From assembly GCA_965204375.1 (NCBI GenBank), contig OZ241986.1, positions 64,001 to 128,000 on the forward strand: a stretch of DNA of 64,000 bases, in the 5' to 3' direction. The DNA is from Candidatus Latescibacterota bacterium (GTDB lineage Bacteria; Latescibacterota; UBA2968). Below are positions 22,637 to 36,349 of the stretch, piece by piece. Position 1 is the first letter of the stretch; each line of letters opens with the position of its first letter. The notes beneath the pieces are model-generated. The model saw only the letters and a program-made list of their open reading frames with translations. It had not been told where the DNA came from and did no database searches. The position numbers were made by a program, and so were the translations under genes.

Positions 22637-24874
22637 ATGGAAACTACTGGAATTGTCGCATACCGGGAAAAGCTGGAGCAGGTCGTTGGAAGGTATCACG
22701 ACTTTCTCGGTGATGAAGCGGAGAGCCTCTGCCAAGAACACAGCGTTCCCACCGCAAGGGATTTACAGGCGCAGATGGCGTCCATTAAAAATGAGGAACG
22801 CTTACTGAAAATCGGCATTGTGGGGCGGGTCAAGTCGGGAAAATCCTCGTTGCTGAACGCCCTCGTCTTTGATGGGCAAAGTATTCTCCCCGAGGCGGCG
22901 ACCCCAATGACGGCGTCTTTGACGACCTTGTCTTATGGGGAACCGCTGTCGGCGGAAGTGGAATTTTTTACCCAAGAGGATTTAGCGGATATCAGGGACA
23001 AGGCCGAAGAATACGACAGGCAATTGGAGAGGCGCGTCAGAGAAATTCGGAACAAAGAAAAAAAAAGAAAAAGCCTATTTTCTCGAAGGAGTCGGCAAGA
23101 AAACAAGAGCCGATCTCGAAGAGACTCGGATGAACGGGTGCAACGCAGAGCCGAAAGAGAGATGCGCGAGAATATCGTACTCTCGTCCGCCCGCGATCAA
23201 TACAAAAAAATGATCGAGAGCGGAGTATCCCTTGAGAATTTGCCGGAAAATGTACTTCTGAAGTTTGGAAATCCTGCGGATTTACGCAGCCAGTTGAATG
23301 AATATGTCGGTGCGAAGGGTCAGTATATGCCTTTTACCAAAAGCGTCAATATTCGGTTGCCGCAGGAGAATCTCAAGGATATAGAAATTGTAGATACCCC
23401 GGGCATCAACGATCCGGTGCAGTCGCGGGAAGCGCGTACCCAAGAGCACTTGAATCAGTGCGATGTGGTGTTGGTCATCAGTCCTTCGGGGCAATTTATA
23501 AACCAGGTGGATCTGGAATTGATGGATCGCATCACCAGCAAGGAAGGCATCCATGAATTATTTGTGGTGGCTTCTCAAACGGATACCCAGCTTTTAGGCC
23601 ATTTGAAGGCCGAGAATAATGGACAGTTAGATCTCGTGTTGGATAGCCTTACCCGCGTGCTGGGGAACCAATTGGAAAAAGTGATCGCGGACCTAAAAGA
23701 GAGCTCTCCCGAAGTGGGAGATACTTATGATCAGTTGCTCGAAGGGCAAAGCAAGGTCATCCACTCTGCGGGGCTTTGCGAAAGCCTGAAGCAACGCTTC
23801 AGGCAAAAGGATGAGTGGAGCGAGGGGATGCAGCATGTTTGGGACAATTTGCAGACGGGGTATCCCGATTATTTTTCCGATACAGACGAGAATTTGTCGC
23901 GCTTCAACTTGGAAAAGCTGTCCAACATATCGACCATTCGGAATATCGTTGAGCAGGTGCGAGAGAAAAAGCAGGAAATTCTCGATAAGAGGATAGACAA
24001 CTATGTCCATGCAAAATACCAGTCCCTACATGCCTTGAGAAAGGGACTGCTCGCGTATGCCAACGAACGGCAGTCCCAAATTGAGAGCACGGATATTGCA
24101 AAATTCAAGGAACGGAGGAGAGGATTGACAAAGGCTCTCGACGATGCTTCGGAAGAGATAAAGGATGAGTACGAAGAATCGATCTATCTGATAAAAAAAT
24201 CCATGCGAGGTGAATTTAAGCGAGAATCAGAAGCACGCGAGCAGGCGTTAAAACGAAGGATCGAGAATGAGAAAGGAGAAGATAGTGAAACGTATGAAGA
24301 TGGTCTCATATTTAAGAAAACTCGCACCAGGACGTTTGCCACCATCCGCACAAATGCTGTCCATCGACGCTTATCGGAGTTTTCTGAAGAACTGAAAGAG
24401 GAGGTTGTGGATAAAACAGAGGATAAGAAGAAAGATTGGCGGAAGTATCTCAACCAGAATATGACCAAAATTTTAAGAAAACATTTTGGCGATGAGGATT
24501 TGGAAGCCTCCCTGATCAGCCGGGTAATCAGAGATACTGTTCACTCGATAAATATTCCAGCCTTTGAATACAAAAAACAAATTCCAGATTCCTTGAAATC
24601 CCAAGGTGTTTTGAAAGATGAGGAAGCGAAGAAATTTTTTGATGAATCCCGCGACTATGCTGATGATCTATGTAGAGGAACAAAAAAAGAGATAAGCGCG
24701 TACATAAAAGATCTCGCCAAAAGGATGGAGCAAGGGCATTTGTATGAGCGGTTGCTGGAACAATTCCAAAAAGAACTTGCCACACTTGAGAAATCCATTG
24801 CAAACAAGGAAATGGAGTTAAAAAGAATCAGCAATCTCAAGGGTGAGTTAGAAAAAATTGCGGAGATGAACTAA
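22637..24874 (+). CDS. Dynamin-like GTPase 2
   Basis: G1 GRVKSGKS, TPMT, DTPG, G4-like SQTD; long charged helical C-terminus; AAGGAG RBS. Confidence 0.9.
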   Translation: METTGIVAYREKLEQVVGRYHDFLGDEAESLCQEHSVPTARDLQAQMASIKNEERLLKIGIVGRVKSGKSSLLNALVFDGQSILPEAATPMTASLTTLSYGEPLSAEVEFFTQEDLADIRDKAEEYDRQLERRVREIRNKEKKRKSLFSRRSRQENKSRSRRDSDERVQRRAEREMRENIVLSSARDQYKKMIESGVSLENLPENVLLKFGNPADLRSQLNEYVGAKGQYMPFTKSVNIRLPQENLKDIEIVDTPGINDPVQSREARTQEHLNQCDVVLVISPSGQFINQVDLELMDRITSKEGIHELFVVASQTDTQLLGHLKAENNGQLDLVLDSLTRVLGNQLEKVIADLKESSPEVGDTYDQLLEGQSKVIHSAGLCESLKQRFRQKDEWSEGMQHVWDNLQTGYPDYFSDTDENLSRFNLEKLSNISTIRNIVEQVREKKQEILDKRIDNYVHAKYQSLHALRKGLLAYANERQSQIESTDIAKFKERRRGLTKALDDASEEIKDEYEESIYLIKKSMRGEFKRESEAREQALKRRIENEKGEDSETYEDGLIFKKTRTRTFATIRTNAVHRRLSEFSEELKEEVVDKTEDKKKDWRKYLNQNMTKILRKHFGDEDLEASLISRVIRDTVHSINIPAFEYKKQIPDSLKSQGVLKDEEAKKFFDESRDYADDLCRGTKKEISAYIKDLAKRMEQGHLYERLLEQFQKELATLEKSIANKEMELKRISNLKGELEKIAEMN

Positions 24875-27243
24875 TGTACCAGAAATTTATCCAGAAAGTG
24901 AACTCACTTTGGGAAACATTTGTAAGAAATCGATCAGTGTATAAAAAGCTGTTGAGTAAGGAACATGGTGAGTTGCTCTTAGAACAAGATGCCCTATCGA
25001 AAAGATATGAGCGAGTAAAAACCGAATTGGATGATACTCAAGGCAGTCTCAATAAGCTACGCGATGAACATAGTGGACTATCTCAAAAATACGCACTGGT
25101 CTCCGACCTGCTAACTGCCAAATCCAGTGAAAATGAAGCATTTGAGAAGTTTAAGGAACTTTTTGATGGGGAATTTATGGCCTTTGCCAATAAGGAGTCC
25201 TCACTGGCCGACGAAGCGGCGGCCGTGCAGCAGCTACAAACGCTGGAGAAGCGTTTAGAAAAGATTGTGGCATTCCCGCACACATTTACGAAGCGGTCCA
25301 TTGCCATCGGCGGTGGATTTAGCAGCGGCAAGTCGGCATTTGTCAATAGCTTTATCGAGCATCCCGACATTCAGCTTCCCGTGGGCATTCAGCCGGTTAC
25401 AGCCATTCCCTCGTATGTCATGGACGGTGTGGATGCTTCGATCAAGGGCTATTCCCGTACTGGGGGCACGATCGATATCCCTCCGGATTTCTACGTCCAA
25501 CTGTCCCATGATTTCATAGATACGCTTTCGTTTAATGTCAAGGACTTGATGCCTGAAATCGCCGTGGAAGTGCCGTTGCAGGCGGACTTGTTCGAGCATA
25601 TCTACCTGATCGACACGCCGGGCTACAACCCGGCTGGAGGGCAGACGAGTGAGGACGAGGCTACGTCGGCTGAATTTCTCAAGGATCGGGATGCTTTGAT
25701 CTGGATGATCGGTCTGGACGCGACGGGCACGGTGCCCGAGTCGGATTTGGATTTCATTGAAGGGTTGGAACTGAATGAGCTACCGTTTTATATGGTTTTG
25801 AACAAGGCAGACCTCAAATCCGAAAGCGACTTGACGGATATTGTAAAGGAGGTGTGGGACACGCTTGATGATGCAGGTATTGAGCCTGTGGGCATCAGTG
25901 CGTATAGCGCGACTCTGCGTAAGGAATACCTGTATAAAGGGACGGCACTGCATGATTTTTTTCGCAGCCAAAATCATTTTGTTGAAGACCAGGGGATTGA
26001 ATTAAAAAAGGAGATTGAAGACGTTTTTGAAAAGTACGAAAAGGCTATTGACGATGATGAGAAAACTGCCTATGAGCTGAGGAAAAAACTCAATACTCTC
26101 AATCTCGATATAAACGAACTGGGGGGTGATTCTGACGCTGTGGATGTCTTGCAAGAGAAAATTGACAAGATCAAAAACTCTCAAAACAAAAATTTTGTGC
26201 CGATCAAGGTAGAGATGAAAGAAATACAAACGAAGATGCTCAGAGCAGTGGATGAAATTTTTTGGTCGTTGAGTTCTCAGAGTGCCGAAGCTATGCCCCA
26301 GCCTTTGTCTACTCCAAAGCCAAACAGCAAGAAATCAACAGTGAGACGTCAAGGCTATATCAGGGGCGGAAAATACATCAAGACTGACGCCGAACAATCT
26401 GAAAAACCTGCCTTTGCAAACCCTCAGCCACACTTTGATTCATGTGATTTTGAAAAAAAGCCGAAGAAATCCAAACGAATTGGCGAGGTTGCACGCGAGT
26501 TTAATTTATCAAGTTCGACAATGCTCACGTTGCTCCGCAACCTCGGTTTTAAATCAAGAAGCCCCAGGTCTATCTGTACACAGGAAATGGTTGAGGCAGT
26601 TCAAAGAGAATTAGGTGCTGAACGCCAAAATAATAAAAAGAATACCGAAGCAACAAAACGAATTGGCGAGGTTGCACGCGAGTTTAATTTATCAAGTTCG
26701 ACAATGCTCACGTTGCTCCGCAACCTCGGTTTTAAATCAAGAAGCCCCAAGACTATCTGCACACAAGAAATGGTTGAGGCAGTTCAAAGAGAATTGGATA
26801 TTGAACGTCAAATCGCAAAGAAGAACACCGAAGCAGCATCACAAACGCAGGCATTGATCAACATCAATCAGGCAACAGCAAAAGAGCTTGAGCGTCTGCC
26901 AGGCATTGGTCCTGAAATTGCGAAGCGCATCGTGGCCTATCGCAAACAGAACGGGCTATTTCAACGTATTGACGATCTCATAAATATCCGAGGCATCAGC
27001 CTCAAAATGCTTAATGATATGATCAGCATCAATCAGGCAACAGCAAAAGAGCTTGAGCGTCTGCCAGGCATTGGTCCTGAAATTGCGAAGCGCATCGTGG
27101 CCTATCGCAAACAGAACGGGCTATTTCAACGTATTGACGATCTCATAAAAGTCCAGGGCATCAGCCTCAGAATACTTAATGATCTGCGTTCCAAATTAGA
27201 GTGGAATTTAATAGATGTTTTAAGGCAGGCGAAAAAGCAGTAG
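24874..27243 (+). CDS. Dynamin-like GTPase 3 fused to 2x IF2 N-terminal-like and 2x ComEA-type HhH domains
   Basis: N-terminal coiled coil; GGFSSGKS, PVT, DTPG, NKAD; KRIGEVAREFNLSS...LGFK twice; INQATAKELERLPGIGPEIAKRIVAYR twice; TAATG overlap with the upstream gene. Confidence 0.88.
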   Translation: MYQKFIQKVNSLWETFVRNRSVYKKLLSKEHGELLLEQDALSKRYERVKTELDDTQGSLNKLRDEHSGLSQKYALVSDLLTAKSSENEAFEKFKELFDGEFMAFANKESSLADEAAAVQQLQTLEKRLEKIVAFPHTFTKRSIAIGGGFSSGKSAFVNSFIEHPDIQLPVGIQPVTAIPSYVMDGVDASIKGYSRTGGTIDIPPDFYVQLSHDFIDTLSFNVKDLMPEIAVEVPLQADLFEHIYLIDTPGYNPAGGQTSEDEATSAEFLKDRDALIWMIGLDATGTVPESDLDFIEGLELNELPFYMVLNKADLKSESDLTDIVKEVWDTLDDAGIEPVGISAYSATLRKEYLYKGTALHDFFRSQNHFVEDQGIELKKEIEDVFEKYEKAIDDDEKTAYELRKKLNTLNLDINELGGDSDAVDVLQEKIDKIKNSQNKNFVPIKVEMKEIQTKMLRAVDEIFWSLSSQSAEAMPQPLSTPKPNSKKSTVRRQGYIRGGKYIKTDAEQSEKPAFANPQPHFDSCDFEKKPKKSKRIGEVAREFNLSSSTMLTLLRNLGFKSRSPRSICTQEMVEAVQRELGAERQNNKKNTEATKRIGEVAREFNLSSSTMLTLLRNLGFKSRSPKTICTQEMVEAVQRELDIERQIAKKNTEAASQTQALININQATAKELERLPGIGPEIAKRIVAYRKQNGLFQRIDDLINIRGISLKMLNDMISINQATAKELERLPGIGPEIAKRIVAYRKQNGLFQRIDDLIKVQGISLRILNDLRSKLEWNLIDVLRQAKKQ
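26473..26838 (+). repeat. Intragenic tandem duplication, 183-bp period (IF2_N-like, 61 aa)
   Basis: Copies start at 26473 and 26656; about the first 95 nt are identical. Confidence 0.95.
26855..27184 (+). repeat. Intragenic tandem duplication, 165-bp period (HhH, 55 aa)
   Basis: Copies start at 26855 and 27020; about 120 nt are identical. Confidence 0.95.
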
Positions 27244-29193: not shown

Positions 29194-29265
29194 CGGGATT
29201 CCCGTACAGTGCCCATTTACTGATGTTACTCGGTTTATCTACAATGGGCTGTCATTAGAGAGAGG

Positions 29266-30594
29266 ATGAAAATGGATGCAAAAACCAAAAAATTGCAGGT
29301 GGATCAGGCTGTGAAATCGCAGTCGCGGCGGGCGTTTAAGCTGTCGCGAAGTATTCACGGCTGGGCTGAACGGCCGTTTCAGGAATACGAGTCGTCAAAG
29401 GCGTTGGCGGCGTATTTGGAGGAGAACGGATTTCAAATTGAATTTCCGTGGAAAAATATCCCGACGGCTTTTCGCGCCACCTGGGGTACGGGTAAACCCA
29501 CTATTGGCATGTTGGGGGAGTACGACGCATTGCCCAATTGCGGTGCCGAGGAGGGCACCTGGGGCCACGGCTGAGGTCATAATCTTTTGGGCGTTGCCCC
29601 GGCCGCAGGTGCGGTTGCTGCAAAGACGGTATTGGAAAATTTGGAATCATCCGGCCAGATTATTTATTACGGCTGTCCGGCTGAAGAAACCCTGGCGGGT
29701 AAAGTGTATATGGCCCGCGATGGCGCGTTTCGAGATTTAGATGCGGTGCTGGCATGGCATCCGGGGTCGAGTACGGGTGTTAGCAATTATGGCGGTTCAT
29801 CACTGGATTCGCTGGTGTATGAGTTTTTTGGCAAGACGTCTCACGGCGCGAGTGCTCACAATGGGCGCAGTGCATTGGATGGGGTGATGTTGATGGATGT
29901 TGCGGCGAATTATTTGCGCGAGCACGTTCCCGAAAATGTGCGTATCCACTGTGTAATTCGGGATGGTGGGGACGCGCCCAATGTGGTTCCTGCCTATGCG
30001 AAGGTGTGGTATTATGTGCGAGGGAAGGATCGTGAACAGGTCAATAAAATACGCAAGCGATTGACCAAATGCGCAAAGGGTGCGGCGATGGCCACGGAAA
30101 CGACTATGAAATGGCATCGGATTACGGCTGTGTACCCGCGTTTGCCAAATGATGTGATGTGCGAAACTGTACGTCAAAATCTCAAATTATTCGGTCCGCC
30201 GCGCGCTTCTAAAAACGATAAGGAACGCGTAAAGGAATTGGGATACAAAGGTGAATTTGACGGGAAGATCAAAAAGGGGAAGGGGTCACAGGGGCGCGGG
30301 TCTTCGGATGAAGACAATGTGTCGTGGCTGGCGCCGATGGGTCGGTTTCAGATGGTGTGTTATACCAAGGGTACGCCGGGTCATCATCGCGATATGACCG
30401 CACAGGCGATAATGCCTTATGCCGAGCGCGCGGTTTTGCAAACGGCCAAGGTGTTTGCAGGATCGGCTATTGATCTGATTTTGGACAAGAAGCTGTTACA
30501 AGCAGCGCGTGCGGAATTTGTGAAGGGAACAAAGGGGTTTGAGTACGATCCATTGATTCCAAAACGTCAGAAGGTCCCCGTGGATCCTCCGTAG
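29266..30594 (+). CDS. M20D/AbgB-like amidohydrolase, probable selenoprotein (TGA 29572-29574 read as Sec, codon 103; 442 aa)
   Basis: ORFs 29266-29574 and 29587-30594 share one frame: GEYDALP...GHG*GHNLLG...GCPAEE...WHP...GRSALD...PNVVP. The stop sits at the conserved Cys of GHGCGHN. Confidence 0.85.
29594..29623 (+). promoter_or_regulatory. Candidate bacterial SECIS element
   Basis: TTGC-CC-CGGCCGC-[AGGT]-GCGGTTG-CT-GCAA; the loop begins 32 nt after the TGA. Confidence 0.7.
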
Positions 30595-30607: not shown

Positions 30608-31600
30608 TTGAAAGCACAAAGATTAATATGTACAGATATCCGGCGGATTGAATTGGAAGCCTTTGATCTGCCGCGTGTGCCAGACAATGGCATTTTGGTG
30701 CAAAACGATTATACCGCCGTGAGCGTTGGCACGGAAATTTACAATTATGCTTATGGTGGTGAACCGTCGCGTGCGAGGACATTTCCCCGGCCAACGGGAT
30801 ATTGCAATACGGGTGTGGTGCTCGAGGTGGGCAAAGATGTGAAGGGGGTAAAACCAGGTGACCGTATTGCCGCGCAGGGCAATCACACCAGTCACGCGGT
30901 CATAAGTGGGAATTTTTTTAGAGTGCCTGAGGGTGTTTCGCCCAGGTCGGCGGCTTTTATGGTTATGTGTGCTATTGCCATGCATGGGCATCGGGTTGGA
31001 CGTCCGGAATTGGGTGAGGTTGTTGCAATTACCGGTATGGGGATTGTGGGCCAGTTGGCCGCGACTTTTGCGCGAATGGCTGGCGCACTTCCGGTTATTG
31101 CGATTGATCTGGATGATTTTCGGTTGGGTAAAGCGAGAGATAGGGGGGCAGATGTTTGTATCAACCCCAATGCGGAAGGGGATGTCGCCGAAGTGGTGCG
31201 CGAGCATTGCGTGGGCGATGGTGTCGATCTGGTCATCGAAGCAACGGGTATTCCCGCGGTTTATCCCATGGCGTTGACTTTGCCCCGGTTGGGTGGCCGC
31301 TTGGTCGCGCTGGGGTCTCCGCGGGGGACCGTGGAAGTGAGTTTTTTGCCCGAGATTCACTTGCGCGAGATTACGATTCTGGGCGCGCATCAGCCCAAGA
31401 CGCCGGATAATGACCATATTTATTATCCCTGGAGCAAGCGCAGAGATCGCGAGCTAATTTTGCGTTTGATGGCTGAGGGCAAGTTGCCCATTGAAGATTT
31501 GATTACCCATGTCGCCAATCCCGCCGATTGCCAGACTATCTACGATATGCTCGCCGATAATCCCCAAGAAGTGTTGGGTGTGGTATTTGAGTGGGTTTGA
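30608..31600 (+). CDS. MDR-family (zinc-binding alcohol dehydrogenase-like) oxidoreductase
   Basis: VSVGTE, TGYCNTG, GMGIVG Rossmann motif, IEATG. Confidence 0.88.
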   Translation: MKAQRLICTDIRRIELEAFDLPRVPDNGILVQNDYTAVSVGTEIYNYAYGGEPSRARTFPRPTGYCNTGVVLEVGKDVKGVKPGDRIAAQGNHTSHAVISGNFFRVPEGVSPRSAAFMVMCAIAMHGHRVGRPELGEVVAITGMGIVGQLAATFARMAGALPVIAIDLDDFRLGKARDRGADVCINPNAEGDVAEVVREHCVGDGVDLVIEATGIPAVYPMALTLPRLGGRLVALGSPRGTVEVSFLPEIHLREITILGAHQPKTPDNDHIYYPWSKRRDRELILRLMAEGKLPIEDLITHVANPADCQTIYDMLADNPQEVLGVVFEWV

Positions 31601-31746: not shown

Positions 31747-32244
31747 ATGGATTTTAAAACCACTGATTTGTGCGATGAACACGAAACCGATCCAGCACTT
31801 CAAGTTGCTGAGCCGATATTTAATGACTATGGCGGTATCACGGCATTTTGCGGTCCGATTGCCACGGTCAAGGTTCACGAAGACAATGTGCTCGTGCGCG
31901 AGATACTCGAAACCCCGGGCGAGGGGCGCGTTCTCGTCGTCGATGGCGAGGGCTCAACGTGGTGTGCGCTTTTGGGGGATATGGTCGCTGAAATCGCCAG
32001 TGACAACGGCTGGTCGGGGATTGTCATAAATGGTGGTGTGCGCGATGTTTCTGACATTGCGAAAATTGATATAGGTGTCAAGGCGCGCTTTGCCGTGCCG
32101 CGCCGTAGCCGAAAAGAAGGTAATGGCCGGCAGGATACGCCTCTTGCTTTTGCCGGTGTCACCTTTCTCCCGGGCGATTATCTCTACGCCGATGAAGATG
32201 GGATCTTGATTGCTACGAGAGATTTGTTAGACGCGCAGGATTGA
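31747..32244 (+). CDS. rraA: RraA family protein (HMG aldolase/oxaloacetate decarboxylase-like)
   Basis: TTDLCD, EDNVLV, VLVVDG, ALLGD, GGVRD, ADEDG. Confidence 0.9.
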   Translation: MDFKTTDLCDEHETDPALQVAEPIFNDYGGITAFCGPIATVKVHEDNVLVREILETPGEGRVLVVDGEGSTWCALLGDMVAEIASDNGWSGIVINGGVRDVSDIAKIDIGVKARFAVPRRSRKEGNGRQDTPLAFAGVTFLPGDYLYADEDGILIATRDLLDAQD

Positions 32245-32270
32245 CCTGCAATTACATATGGAGACAAAAT

Positions 32271-33638
32271 ATGCCGCAGACAGATCGACCCAATATCCTC
32301 TTTATTATGGACGACCAGCATCGTTTTGATTACATGGGCTGTGCAGGTGCTGATTTTGTTCGCACGCCCAATATTGACCGCCTGGCAAAGCAGGGGGTGC
32401 ATTTTACCCAATGCACGACAAATTGCCCTGTTTGCGCGCCTTCGCGCATTGCTCTGGCTTCTGGCATGCAGCCCTCGCGCCTCGGTTGCGTTGGGAACAA
32501 TTGCTTCTTGCCTCGCAGCCAACCGACTTATTATCAGCAATTGCGCGATTACAATTATTACGTGGGGTGTGTAGGCAAGCTCGATCTGGCCAAACCCGAT
32601 GGGTACAATGGGCGCGATGGCGATAGGCCCGCTACGTATATGTGGGGCTTTACCCATCCGGTCGAATGCGAGGGCAAAATGCACGCTGGGCATTCCAAAA
32701 CACCGCAGGGCCCTTATAACCACTTTTTGGAGGAAAGAGGGTTGCTCGGTGCTTTTGTCGATGATTATACCCGTCGCTCCAAAGAGGGTTATCACGCTTC
32801 CTGTCACGATTCGGTCTTACCCACCGAGGCTTTTGAGGATGTGTATATTGGACAGCGATCTGTCGAGTGGATTGAGAATATTCCCGGGGATTTTCCCTGG
32901 CATTTATTTGTGAGCTTTGTGGGGCCTCACGATCCTTTTGATCCGCCAGCCGAATATGGAGAGAAGTACCGCGATGCAGAGATGCCACCCGCTACGCCTG
33001 CAAATTTGCCGGGTAAACCCGCGTATTTAAAAGATCGCATCAAAGATATGACCCCGGAAAAAATCGCAGAGGCTCGGCGGCAATATTGCGCGGCTATTGA
33101 AGTTATTGACGATCAGATTGGCGAGATGCTCGCGGCAGTGGAACGGCGGGGGATGACCGATAATACGTATGTCATCTTTTCCAGTGATCACGGAGAAATG
33201 CTGGGCGATCACGGTTTGTACACCAAAAGCGTGCCTTACGAAGCGTCGGTACACGTTCCGCTTATTGTTGCGGGTCCCGGTATTGAAGGTGGTCGCGTAT
33301 CCGACGCGCTCGTTGAACTCATTGACATGAATCCCACGATCTGTGATCTCGCAGGCGTGCCTCCGCTTTCGGATATCGATGCGCGATCAATTGGCGCGGT
33401 GCTTCGCGGAGAGGCAGAGGAACACCGCACGGAAACCGTGAGTGGGATACAAAATTTCAGGTGTATCCGTACGCGGGAGTACAAATTGGTGGAGAACTAC
33501 AACGATGTTACGGAACTCTACGATTTGATCGCTGATCCCACGGAAGAACACAATATTGCCGAACAGGAGCCAGAGGTACGGCGCGAATTGTCTCGCCGTC
33601 TCTCAGCGCGTTATTTAGAAGGCACATGGTATCGGTAG
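32271..33638 (+). CDS. Sulfatase (formylglycine-dependent)
   Basis: PNILFIMDDQHR, CAPSR, SDHGEMLGDH; ATG 32271 after GGAG. Confidence 0.93.
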   Translation: MPQTDRPNILFIMDDQHRFDYMGCAGADFVRTPNIDRLAKQGVHFTQCTTNCPVCAPSRIALASGMQPSRLGCVGNNCFLPRSQPTYYQQLRDYNYYVGCVGKLDLAKPDGYNGRDGDRPATYMWGFTHPVECEGKMHAGHSKTPQGPYNHFLEERGLLGAFVDDYTRRSKEGYHASCHDSVLPTEAFEDVYIGQRSVEWIENIPGDFPWHLFVSFVGPHDPFDPPAEYGEKYRDAEMPPATPANLPGKPAYLKDRIKDMTPEKIAEARRQYCAAIEVIDDQIGEMLAAVERRGMTDNTYVIFSSDHGEMLGDHGLYTKSVPYEASVHVPLIVAGPGIEGGRVSDALVELIDMNPTICDLAGVPPLSDIDARSIGAVLRGEAEEHRTETVSGIQNFRCIRTREYKLVENYNDVTELYDLIADPTEEHNIAEQEPEVRRELSRRLSARYLEGTWYR

Positions 33639-33647
33639 GAGAGAATC

Positions 33648-34631
33648 GTGAAATACACCAAACTTCCCGGTACGGATATCGATGTCTCTGTTATTGCTCT
33701 GGGCTGCTGGCCTTTTGCTGGTGGTGATGTCTGGGGTGAGCAAGATGACGATGTATCTATCGCGACGGTGCATGCCGCGCTCGATGCGGGTATCACCTTT
33801 TTTGATACGGCAGAAGGCTATGGCAAGTCCGAACGCGTGCTTGGACAGGGCCTCAAAGGTCGTAGGCAAGACGCGGTGATCGCCACCAAGGTTGGCGGCG
33901 GTCATCTTTCTTCCGATGATTTGCCCAAAGCCTGCGAACAAAGCCTGAAAAGTCTGCAAACAGATTATATCGATTTGTACCAAATTCACTGGCCCAATCA
34001 CAATATTCCCATCGCAGAAACAGCAAGCGCGCTTCAGCGTCTCCGCGATCAGGGAAAAATTCGGGCTATTGGCGTTTGCAATTTTGCCTGTGGCGATTTG
34101 CGCGACTTGCTTGCTGTTGCGGATATTGTCACCAATCAGTTGTCCTTTAGCTTGCTCTGGCGCGTTATTGAACGCGAGATTCAGCCGATGTGTTTGGAGA
34201 ACAATATTGGCATTATCTGTTATAGCCCGCTGATGCAGGGGTTGCTTACCGGACGTTATGCCTCTGCGGTTGATGTGCCAGATGGTCTGGCGCGAACCCG
34301 CCTGTTTTCGGATGACCGCCCCATGGCCAGACACGGTGAAGAAGGCTGTGAGGCCGAAGTGTTTGAGGCGCTGAAAAAAATTCGCGATGTTGCCGATGAA
34401 GCAGGTGTTGCAATGGCAGAGATTGCCCTTGCCTGGGCACTGCAACAACCCGGTATTACATCGCTTCTGGTGGGTGCGAGAAATCCCGATGAAGTGCAAT
34501 GGAATCTTCCTTCGGTTGATCTCGCATTGTCAGAAGATATATTGCAACGCTTATCTGAGATCACAGAAGGTGTTAAAGACAAACTCGGCAATAATCCCGA
34601 TATGTGGATGTCGGAGTCGAGGATGAGGTGA
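33648..34631 (+). CDS. Aldo/keto reductase
   Basis: DTAEGY, IATK, DLYQIHWP, YSPL. Confidence 0.93.
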   Translation: MKYTKLPGTDIDVSVIALGCWPFAGGDVWGEQDDDVSIATVHAALDAGITFFDTAEGYGKSERVLGQGLKGRRQDAVIATKVGGGHLSSDDLPKACEQSLKSLQTDYIDLYQIHWPNHNIPIAETASALQRLRDQGKIRAIGVCNFACGDLRDLLAVADIVTNQLSFSLLWRVIEREIQPMCLENNIGIICYSPLMQGLLTGRYASAVDVPDGLARTRLFSDDRPMARHGEEGCEAEVFEALKKIRDVADEAGVAMAEIALAWALQQPGITSLLVGARNPDEVQWNLPSVDLALSEDILQRLSEITEGVKDKLGNNPDMWMSESRMR

Positions 34632-35374: not shown

Positions 35375-36349
35375 TCACCGCTCGTCGCGTTTTAAGTCCA
35401 GCCAATCGAGCTCTTCCCGTGTGAGTTTCAAGTTGAGGGCTTCGATATTGGCCTTGCACTCATCGGGATGGAATACGCCGATTAATGAAAAGAGATTCAA
35501 GGGCTGATTCAGGTTGAATGCCAGCGCGATTTGCGGTACGGTCAGTCCTTTTTCTTTCGCCAGTTCTCCCGCGCGGTCCAGACGTTTGAAATTTTGTTCG
35601 TAACAATAGGCTTCGACACAGGAACCCGGTAGATTTGCTTTGTAGTCTTCAAATGTGTCGCGCGTAAATCTGCCAGAGAAAAATCCCTGTGCGAGACTCG
35701 ACCAGGTAAATAGGGGCATGTTTTGTTCTGCATACCAGGCGCGATCCGCCTCGTTGTCAGGTCCACTGATGCTGATACAGCCTCTCCAGGGTTCTTTCAC
35801 CTGTTCTGCAAGGCTGTAATTGGGGCTGCTCACGGTGAATGGTTCCAGATTGTGCTTATATGCGTATTCATTGGCTTCTTGTATGCGCGGCACGGTCCAG
35901 TTTGATCCGCCAAATAGTCCGATTCGACCCGCTGCCTTGTGTTCGTTTAGTATCTCTACTATGGGGCCAACTTCGACATTGGGATCATCGCGGTGCAATA
36001 CGTAGATGTCGATAAAATTCGTTCGGCAACGTTCCAGAGAAGTGGTCAGGTCTGCAGTAATATCAGGCGGGGTGACTTTATTTTTTTTCCCAGTATGATG
36101 TGCGCCCTTTGTCAATATGACGGCTTCGTCGTGCAGGCCGCGCTCGTCGAGCCATTGGCCCAGAACGCGCTCACACTGCCCGCCACCGTAAATATATGCT
36201 CCGTCAAAGCCGTTGACGCCGAGTGCCCATACGCCGTCTAACAGGTCAAATGATTCTTGCAGGTCGTCTTCGCGCAACATCATTGTACCTTGTAAAATGC
36301 GCGAAATTTTTTTGTCCATTCCTTCAATTGTGCCGTATTCCATTGGCAT
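35375..36349 (-). CDS. Aldo/keto reductase
   Basis: DGAYIY, ILTKG, LHRDD, WSSLAQG. Confidence 0.92.
   Translation of the reverse strand: MPMEYGTIEGMDKKISRILQGTMMLREDDLQESFDLLDGVWALGVNGFDGAYIYGGGQCERVLGQWLDERGLHDEAVILTKGAHHTGKKNKVTPPDITADLTTSLERCRTNFIDIYVLHRDDPNVEVGPIVEILNEHKAAGRIGLFGGSNWTVPRIQEANEYAYKHNLEPFTVSSPNYSLAEQVKEPWRGCISISGPDNEADRAWYAEQNMPLFTWSSLAQGFFSGRFTRDTFEDYKANLPGSCVEAYCYEQNFKRLDRAGELAKEKGLTVPQIALAFNLNQPLNLFSLIGVFHPDECKANIEALNLKLTREELDWLDLKRDER

Follow-up and report, generated by a model that had tools for sequence, protein, structure and literature searches.

Known selenoproteins are overwhelmingly redox enzymes. In the alpha subunit of formate dehydrogenase and in the [NiFeSe] hydrogenases, selenocysteine (Sec) directly ligates the catalytic metal (Mo/W and Ni) (PMC13188914), and a 2026 review lists 119 families and subfamilies of prokaryotic selenoproteins (PMC13188914). 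Enzymes of the M20D type are metallo-hydrolases with a Cys in an HxCGH motif. In CsAga, an N-acyl-glutamine aminoacylase of Corynebacterium, this Cys is reported to bridge two zinc ions (PMC11511702). In peach ILR1, hydrolase activity is reportedly lost upon the C137S substitution in HAC137GHD, and the authors refer to work that locates the corresponding Cys at the cofactor metal (PMC8149794). Here we analyse a gene of a Candidatus Latescibacterota bacterium (assembly GCA_965204375.1) in which an in-frame TGA stands at the position of that Cys. The gene occupies positions 29266 to 30594 of a 64,000-nucleotide stretch of contig OZ241986.1 (contig positions 64,001 to 128,000, forward strand; hereafter the window). 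Comparison with related sequences indicates that it is very probably one intact gene with its UGA decoded as Sec, and not a pseudogene; from the same comparisons we infer the incorporation of selenium itself.

The gene and its internal TGA are located as follows:

29266..30594, + strand: coding sequence (CDS) of an M20D-type amidohydrolase/dipeptidase, a single frame of 442 codons from ATG 29266, with the terminal stop TAG at 30592-30594
29572..29574, + strand: TGA predicted to be read as Sec, residue 103 counted from ATG 29266, at the position of the Cys in the metal-binding GHxCGH motif

The codons at the site are GGC CAC GGC TGA GGT CAT AAT, with the TGA at 29572-29574. Translation table 11 cuts the frame into two open reading frames (ORFs), 29266..29574 and 29587..30594. 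Read-through of the TGA gives a 442-residue protein with GHG-U-GHN as residues 100-106, and beyond this TGA the frame 29266-30594 has no further stops or frameshifts. An earlier reading of this DNA (hereafter the sequence-only reading) had described one frame interrupted solely by the TGA at 29572-29574, which the codon display and the read-through translation bear out. Its expectation that annotation pipelines would miscall the gene also held: GenBank has only fragments of 320-335 aa for it, named 'amidohydrolase' or 'peptidase dimerization domain-containing protein'. Because a Shine-Dalgarno-like GAGAGG (29260-29265) directly touches ATG 29266 and relatives start at residue 3, translation probably begins two codons further on, at ATG 29272 and not at 29266; Sec would then be residue 101 of a 440-aa protein.

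We compared the gene across 168 genomes of the phylum, which are Latescibacterota according to their record titles, some records being labelled Gemmatimonadota or Planctomycetota. Of 61 related genomes, 52 contain an orthologue (E <= 1e-30), which has exactly one TGA in 49; the full set of 168 yields 63 matches at E <= 1e-100, with one TGA in 55 and none in 8. Extraction and alignment place the TGA at the identical codon (GHG*GHN) in 55/55 stop-bearing orthologues (hereafter Sec-type). The same TGA codon is also present in the Sec-type loci of a wider locus set and in two further metagenome contigs. The TGA is thus not unique to this assembly; a TGA confined to this assembly, with Cys in all relatives, is what the sequence-only reading had named as counting against Sec. 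The Sec-type genes are distributed over three GTDB families and share 71-100% identity, and therefore sequencing error and recent decay are excluded.

Homologues with Cys at the UGA position are abundant: TGC or TGT occupies the site in 34 Cys-type genome loci and 36 Cys-type metagenome loci. The motif GH(G/A)CGHN is present in 84 of the 121 stored proteins (76 with GHGCGHN and 8 with GHACGHN), at up to 83% identity, and Cys-type orthologues with 41-68% identity occur in Planctomycetota, Verrucomicrobiota, Kiritimatiellia and other metagenome-assembled genomes. At 52-83% identity over the full length, the Cys-type orthologues from metagenomes and from the three named groups have the same length and motifs as the Sec-type genes, but they carry TGC/TGT instead of TGA, and the codons that correspond to the hairpin described below are unconserved, with freely varying synonymous sites.

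Both halves of the Sec-type gene are under strong purifying selection. Where synonymous divergence (dS) is unsaturated, the ratio of nonsynonymous to synonymous divergence (dN/dS) lies at 0.09-0.15 upstream of the TGA, compared with 0.07-0.08 downstream, so the segment past the TGA is at least as constrained as the segment before it. In distant pairs, the proportion of synonymous differences (pS) is 0.75-0.92, i.e. saturated, and dN is just 0.12-0.34. The relaxation of dN/dS downstream of the TGA that the sequence-only reading had raised as a counter-indication is not seen.

A hairpin of the type of the bacterial selenocysteine insertion sequence (SECIS) follows the TGA within the CDS:

29594..29623, + strand: bacterial SECIS-type hairpin in the CDS, TTGC-CC-CGGCCGC-[AGGT]-GCGGTTG-CT-GCAA
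29594-29597 with 29620-29623, + strand: lower stem of the hairpin, conserved only in its inner pairs, G-C and C-G; the internal loop is CC/CU
29600-29606 with 29611-29617, + strand: upper stem of the hairpin, 7 bp
29607-29610, + strand: apical loop AGGU of the hairpin, with 32 nt between the A of the TGA and the loop

Its position, sequence and 32-nt distance from TGA to loop agree with those first proposed. Over 39 distinct 60-nt Sec-type sequences, the stem CGGCCGY/GCGGUYG is paired in 272/273 cells, the two inner lower-stem pairs form in every sequence, and the apical loop appears as AGGU, GGGU or GGGC; RNAalifold recovers the same stem. The decisive evidence for the hairpin is constraint on synonymous sites. 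The 55 Sec-type genes contain 133 conserved four-fold codons with a mean third-position entropy of 1.38 bits, and the only four-fold third positions with zero entropy are those of codons +6, +8, +10 and +13, all of them within the hairpin; codons +7, +9 and +12 are almost fixed. By contrast, 33 distinct Cys-type genes vary at the hairpin codons (e.g. Gly+6 is GGC in 14, GGT in 8, GGA in 7 and GGG in 4), and Cys-type genes for the identical peptide GVAPAVGAV carry synonymous codons that break the stem. Between distant Sec-type pairs, pS falls to 0.25-0.71 in codons +1 to +17, compared with ~0.8-0.9 elsewhere.

The published model of bacterial SECIS (bSECIS) elements specifies (i) a loop of 3-9 nt with a G in its first two positions and an upper stem of 4-16 bp, and (ii) a spacing of 16-37 nt and an MFE (minimum free energy) no higher than -7.5 kcal/mol (PMC13188914). 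The element lies within all of these quoted constraints, with a 4-nt loop, a G at position 2 or 1, a 7-bp stem and a spacing of 32 nt; the mean MFE of the 34-nt segment is -14.9 kcal/mol over 45 Sec-type sequences. The proposed SECIS-like hairpin with an early G in a small apical loop is therefore in agreement with the published constraints.

Several results weigh against a SECIS interpretation. The MFE of a 75-nt segment is -20.4 kcal/mol, with z = +0.78 and 153/200 shuffles at least as stable; the stability of the single sequence is no better than chance, and the significance of the hairpin derives from the comparison with relatives only. Cys-type segments fold nearly as well as Sec-type segments (mean -14.5 vs -14.9 kcal/mol), and MFE has no discriminating power here because GC-rich Ala/Gly codons fold anyway. 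Covariation is weak: just one pair differs in both of its partners, and the observed measures are attained in 149 to 487 of 500 shuffles. The varying stem pair is seen as G-C, G-U and A-U, with one exception, an A-C mismatch in one Sec-type sequence. Covariation statistics are uninformative because the stem hardly varies, and the support comes from conservation and not from compensatory change. At 32 nt, the spacing approaches the upper end of the model's range (16-37 nt) and exceeds that in the organism's own selD by 12 nt. Finally, an Rfam scan of 29540-29680 at E <= 10 returned chance-level matches far under the gathering scores, and no family.

The sequence-only reading had called for a search for selA, selB, selC and selD, and all four are present above curated cut-offs in the genome of the window (G000; 6.34 Mb in one contig). 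These are selA (580 bits) with an adjoining selB (389 bits), selD (369 bits) and the tRNA-Sec gene (70 bits; L017:1501-1594), which lies ~100 nt downstream of selD. The selD gene, too, has a single in-frame TGA, located at the classical CGG-U-ASK site (L014:1531-1533, outside the window) and followed by a hairpin with GGU in its loop, 20 nt past the UGA. In the window, TGA ends 24/48 open frames of at least 250 aa and is the commonest stop. TGA is thus not reassigned in this genome, and the organism is a Sec user.

The TGA and the Sec machinery also tend to occur together. The selA gene is present in 54/55 TGA-type genomes, the exception being a 430-contig, 91%-complete assembly, and in 1/8 genomes whose orthologue has no stop; the genomes being related, the counts show a pattern but do not amount to an independent statistical test. 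The only close Cys-type orthologue in the class (G059; L075, G059:C130) has TGC at the site and 68% identity, and selA is found in 0/2 genomes of its genus (86% and 90% complete).

We then consider the protein family and the residue at the UGA. The window protein scores 199.2 bits against the NCBIfam model TIGR01891 'amidohydrolase' (curated cut-off 153.75). A Pfam scan of it returns M20_dimer only, and PF01546 is precomputed for many orthologues. By sequence, the nearest solved relatives are HmrA of S. aureus (3RAM; E 2e-41) and human PM20D2, a beta-alanyl-lysine / Xaa-Arg dipeptidase (7YH4; E 1.4e-37), and AbgB, subunit B of p-aminobenzoyl-glutamate hydrolase (3IO1), is the weakest among eight PDB sequence matches (E 6.4e-5). 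An AlphaFold2 (AF2) model built from a 149-row alignment headed by the window protein has a predicted local distance difference test score (pLDDT) of 97.5 and a predicted template modelling score (pTM) of 0.94. It has the two-domain M20 fold (a catalytic domain and a dimerisation/lid domain), with Foldseek E values of 1e-37 to 1e-36 against PM20D2 and HmrA. The template modelling scores by query (TMq) and target (TMt) are 0.80 and 0.90 for HmrA (3RAM_A; root-mean-square deviation, rmsd, 2.4 A), and TMq is 0.78 for PM20D2 (7YH4); AbgB (3IO1) ranks 16th by fold, with TMq 0.63. An earlier AF2 model, from a 21-row alignment with a Cys-type relative (P0002) as its first row, had pLDDT <50 over the active-site segment 85-104 and was not used.

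The sequence-only reading had proposed an M20 (AbgB-like) amidohydrolase. The M20D assignment stands by TIGR01891 and by fold, but 'AbgB-like' does not: 'M20D, HmrA/PM20D2-like' is the better label, because both of these proteins are far nearer than AbgB by sequence and by fold. AbgB belongs to the same M20D superfamily, and several orthologues are called 'aminobenzoyl-glutamate utilization protein B' by JGI, but it is much more remote. No abgA- or abgT-like neighbours were found among the eight ORFs scanned around the gene, abgA not having been searched genome-wide. HmrA and PM20D2 share the fold with the window protein, and their GH(A/G)xGHN motif, EE motif and His ligands align with it; they differ in having Cys where the window protein has UGA/Sec, and identity is just 26-27%. 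Moreover, seven residues, CGAEEGT, are inserted ahead of the motif in the clade of the window protein; both HmrA and PM20D2 lack them. This insert region, NCGAEEGTW (29536-29571, residues 91-102), contains an invariant Cys92, 11 residues ahead of Sec. By likeness to HmrA and PM20D2, the substrate would be a dipeptide or an N-acyl amino acid.

Profile alignments match the UGA position to the Cys of HACGH in 3RAM, 7YH4, ILL2 of Arabidopsis (1XMB) and CsAga (6SLF). These alignments, together with the reports on CsAga and ILR1, uphold the statement that the HxCGH Cys binds metal in M20D enzymes. H105, E140 and H165 do not vary among 149 diverse family members, and conservation is 90% or more at C103, E141 and H373. 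The M20D metal-ligand positions are thus all present in the window protein: U103 (Cys in relatives), H105, E140/E141, H165 and H373, which we take to be the five ligands of the M20D set. Because the aligned Cys ligates metal in M20D enzymes and the other ligand positions are conserved, Sec103 is likely a metal ligand, an assignment that is well founded in the alignments; a selenium-metal bond would follow, with a presumed metal of the Zn/Mn type. Sapep was not used as an M20D example: it is reported to be a PepV-like enzyme whose Cys residues are not active-site ligands (PMC2937973).

Taken together, these findings suggest the following mechanism. The gene very probably encodes a full-length M20D metallo-amidohydrolase/dipeptidase, with the UGA at 29572-29574 decoded by SelB and Sec-tRNA(Sec), which would be recruited by the hairpin in the CDS through its GGU-containing apical loop 32 nt downstream. 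Sec would replace the Cys of GH(G/A)CGH, a ligand of the metal pair (bridging in CsAga), alongside His105, Glu140/141, His165 and His373. With Sec in place of a metal-ligating Cys, the enzyme would hydrolyse its substrate without redox chemistry, a selenolate serving as metal ligand. The selective advantage could lie in a ligand that is resistant to irreversible oxidation, or in a changed metal preference.

Other explanations of the interrupted frame have to be considered. A pseudogene or an assembly error, in which a change from TGC/TGT to TGA inactivated a gene whose frame merely looks intact, would need only one TGY-to-TGA change, and it fits the facts that gene callers split the gene and that GenBank holds fragments. 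We consider it practically negligible, as the same TGA is found in 55 independently assembled genomes of three families and in the two metagenome contigs, and the downstream dN/dS stays at 0.07-0.08, with the synonymous sites of distant pairs saturated and the frame otherwise unbroken by stops or frameshifts. The site is also covered by contigs from other studies' DNA and RNA libraries, the TGA being unaltered among the differences listed (with 77 others beyond these), and the range of divergence (71-100% identity) excludes copies of one contaminant. A split gene, in which translation stops at the TGA, a second protein restarts at TTG 29587 and the pieces reassemble, agrees with the ORF 29587..30594 under table 11 and with the 320-336-aa products in databases. 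However, the next in-frame start varies among the 55 genes (+5 TTG in 25, +11 GTG in 14, +46 ATG in 10 and others in 6), any restart loses the invariant His105, and the break falls exactly on the Cys codon in each genome; a split gene also fails to explain why the hairpin is frozen and why the gene occurs together with selA, and we regard this model as extremely improbable.

Read-through of the UGA without Sec, either by reassignment (to Trp or Gly) or by hairpin-stimulated insertion of Cys or Trp by a near-cognate tRNA, would by itself explain the intact frame, and computation cannot tell the inserted residue. This is nonetheless highly improbable: TGA is the commonest stop in the window (24/48 long open frames), the codon coincides with a Cys that homologues encode as TGC/TGT, which makes a classic Sec/Cys pair, the genome has the complete Sec machinery, and its selD uses UGA at a known Sec site. 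Furthermore, the hairpin fits the SelB-type model, and a close Cys-type form comes from a genus that yielded no selA. Sec could also be inserted and yet act as a redox switch or nucleophile instead of a metal ligand. The insert NCGAEEGTW, absent from HmrA/PM20D2, provides C92 and with it a C-x10-U pair that is redox-active in principle; against this, the remaining ligand positions are all conserved in the 149 members, the high-confidence model superposes on HmrA with an rmsd of 2.4 A, and Cys at this position is a metal ligand wherever studied. Sec in such a non-ligand role is therefore improbable, and a Sec-containing M20D enzyme with Sec as a metal ligand is the reading that we retain.

The Sec and Cys forms have an intertwined history. 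A tree of 183 sequences built with FastTree groups the 55 Sec-type sequences with 19 of Cys type in a single clade (support 0.95), within which the two types are interleaved. Parsimony gives four changes at equal costs, and one gain with six losses when gains are penalised, several backbone nodes having support of 0.23-0.37. Because the hairpin sequence is essentially common to all Sec-type genes, a single origin of Sec followed by repeated Sec-to-Cys reversion or transfer appears to be favoured. Of the hairpin, the Cys-type gene of G059 retains the loop with the 3' arm (GTGGGTGCGGTC) and has lost the 5' arm. This remnant is consistent with a SECIS element that decayed after loss of the Sec trait.

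The gene directly downstream is the following:

30608..31600, + strand: zinc-type alcohol dehydrogenase (medium-chain dehydrogenase/reductase; Pfam ADH_zinc_N), directly after the M20D gene

A homologue of this dehydrogenase lies downstream of the M20D gene in 53/98 loci tested; it is adjacent in the family of the window genome and ~1.2 kb away in a sister family. The dehydrogenase is a possible operon member or functional partner. Beyond it, the window contains RraA-like aldolase and sulfatase genes (31747-33638) and then two aldo/keto reductase genes at 33648-34631 (+ strand) and 35375-36349 (- strand). An AAA ATPase and two dynamin-like GTPases are encoded upstream of the M20D gene. The dynamin-family GTPase genes are in tandem (22637-24874 and 24874-27243) with overlapping stop and start, and the second has C-terminal helix-hairpin-helix repeats, an unusual fusion.

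The gene turns up chiefly in sequencing runs of coral and sponge metagenomes. In three metatranscriptome libraries, which come from three studies, contigs extend across the TGA, although such libraries may also carry DNA; no difference falls at 29572-29574 among the differences listed, 77 others lying beyond these. The RNA-library contigs give a weak hint of expression and have no bearing on translation.

The sequence-only reading had proposed that published selenoprotein lists be checked for this enzyme type, and it is absent from those checked. No M20 or amidohydrolase family is found in Table 1 or the main text of the 119-family inventory (PMC13188914). The main texts of deep-Sep and BSepDB do not mention M20, amidohydrolase or peptidase selenoproteins, although their supplementary family tables might bear on this (PMC13326102, PMC12013277). 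NCBIfam release 20 has no selenoprotein-specific model for the window protein, and the literature searched yielded no report of a Sec-containing M20 enzyme. A fuller hypothesis, which we hold to be evenly poised between right and wrong, is that this would be the first selenoenzyme with Sec bridging a hydrolytic (non-redox) di-metal centre and the founding member of an M20 selenoprotein family. Under this hypothesis, Sec would be ancestral in a coral/sponge clade of Latescibacterota, with several reversions to Cys (one in a selA-losing lineage), and the selenolate would tune metal preference or guard against irreversible oxidation.

Replacement of Cys by Sec as the bridging ligand in a hydrolase of the Zn/Mn type would offer a natural test of selenium in non-redox metal coordination, for which Cys-type orthologues with up to 83% identity are natural controls. 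The systematic truncation of the gene in public annotation affects metabolic reconstructions of Latescibacterota, and the family could join the selenoprotein profile sets, which would correct its annotation by pipelines.

Compared with known selenoproteins, the window protein resembles formate dehydrogenase and the [NiFeSe] hydrogenases in the predicted metal-ligating role of Sec and in the decoding route by a bacterial SECIS and SelB. It differs from them in that they are redox enzymes with redox-active metals, whereas the centre here is that of a hydrolase, whose Cys counterpart bridges two Zn in CsAga. Predicted Sec in hydrolase-type families also has parallels in the selenoproteins related to the C-terminal part of CTP synthase (glutamine amidotransferase) and in the UshA-like selenoproteins (PMC13188914, Table 1), but these have other folds and belong to other families, none of them M20 or a clan MH peptidase. 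In the amidotransferase, moreover, Sec would replace a nucleophilic Cys, as suggested by its GxUxG motif, and not a metal ligand. Because both Sec metal ligands and predicted Sec in hydrolase-type families have precedents, the M20D gene would represent a new selenoprotein family, but not a new kind of selenoprotein.

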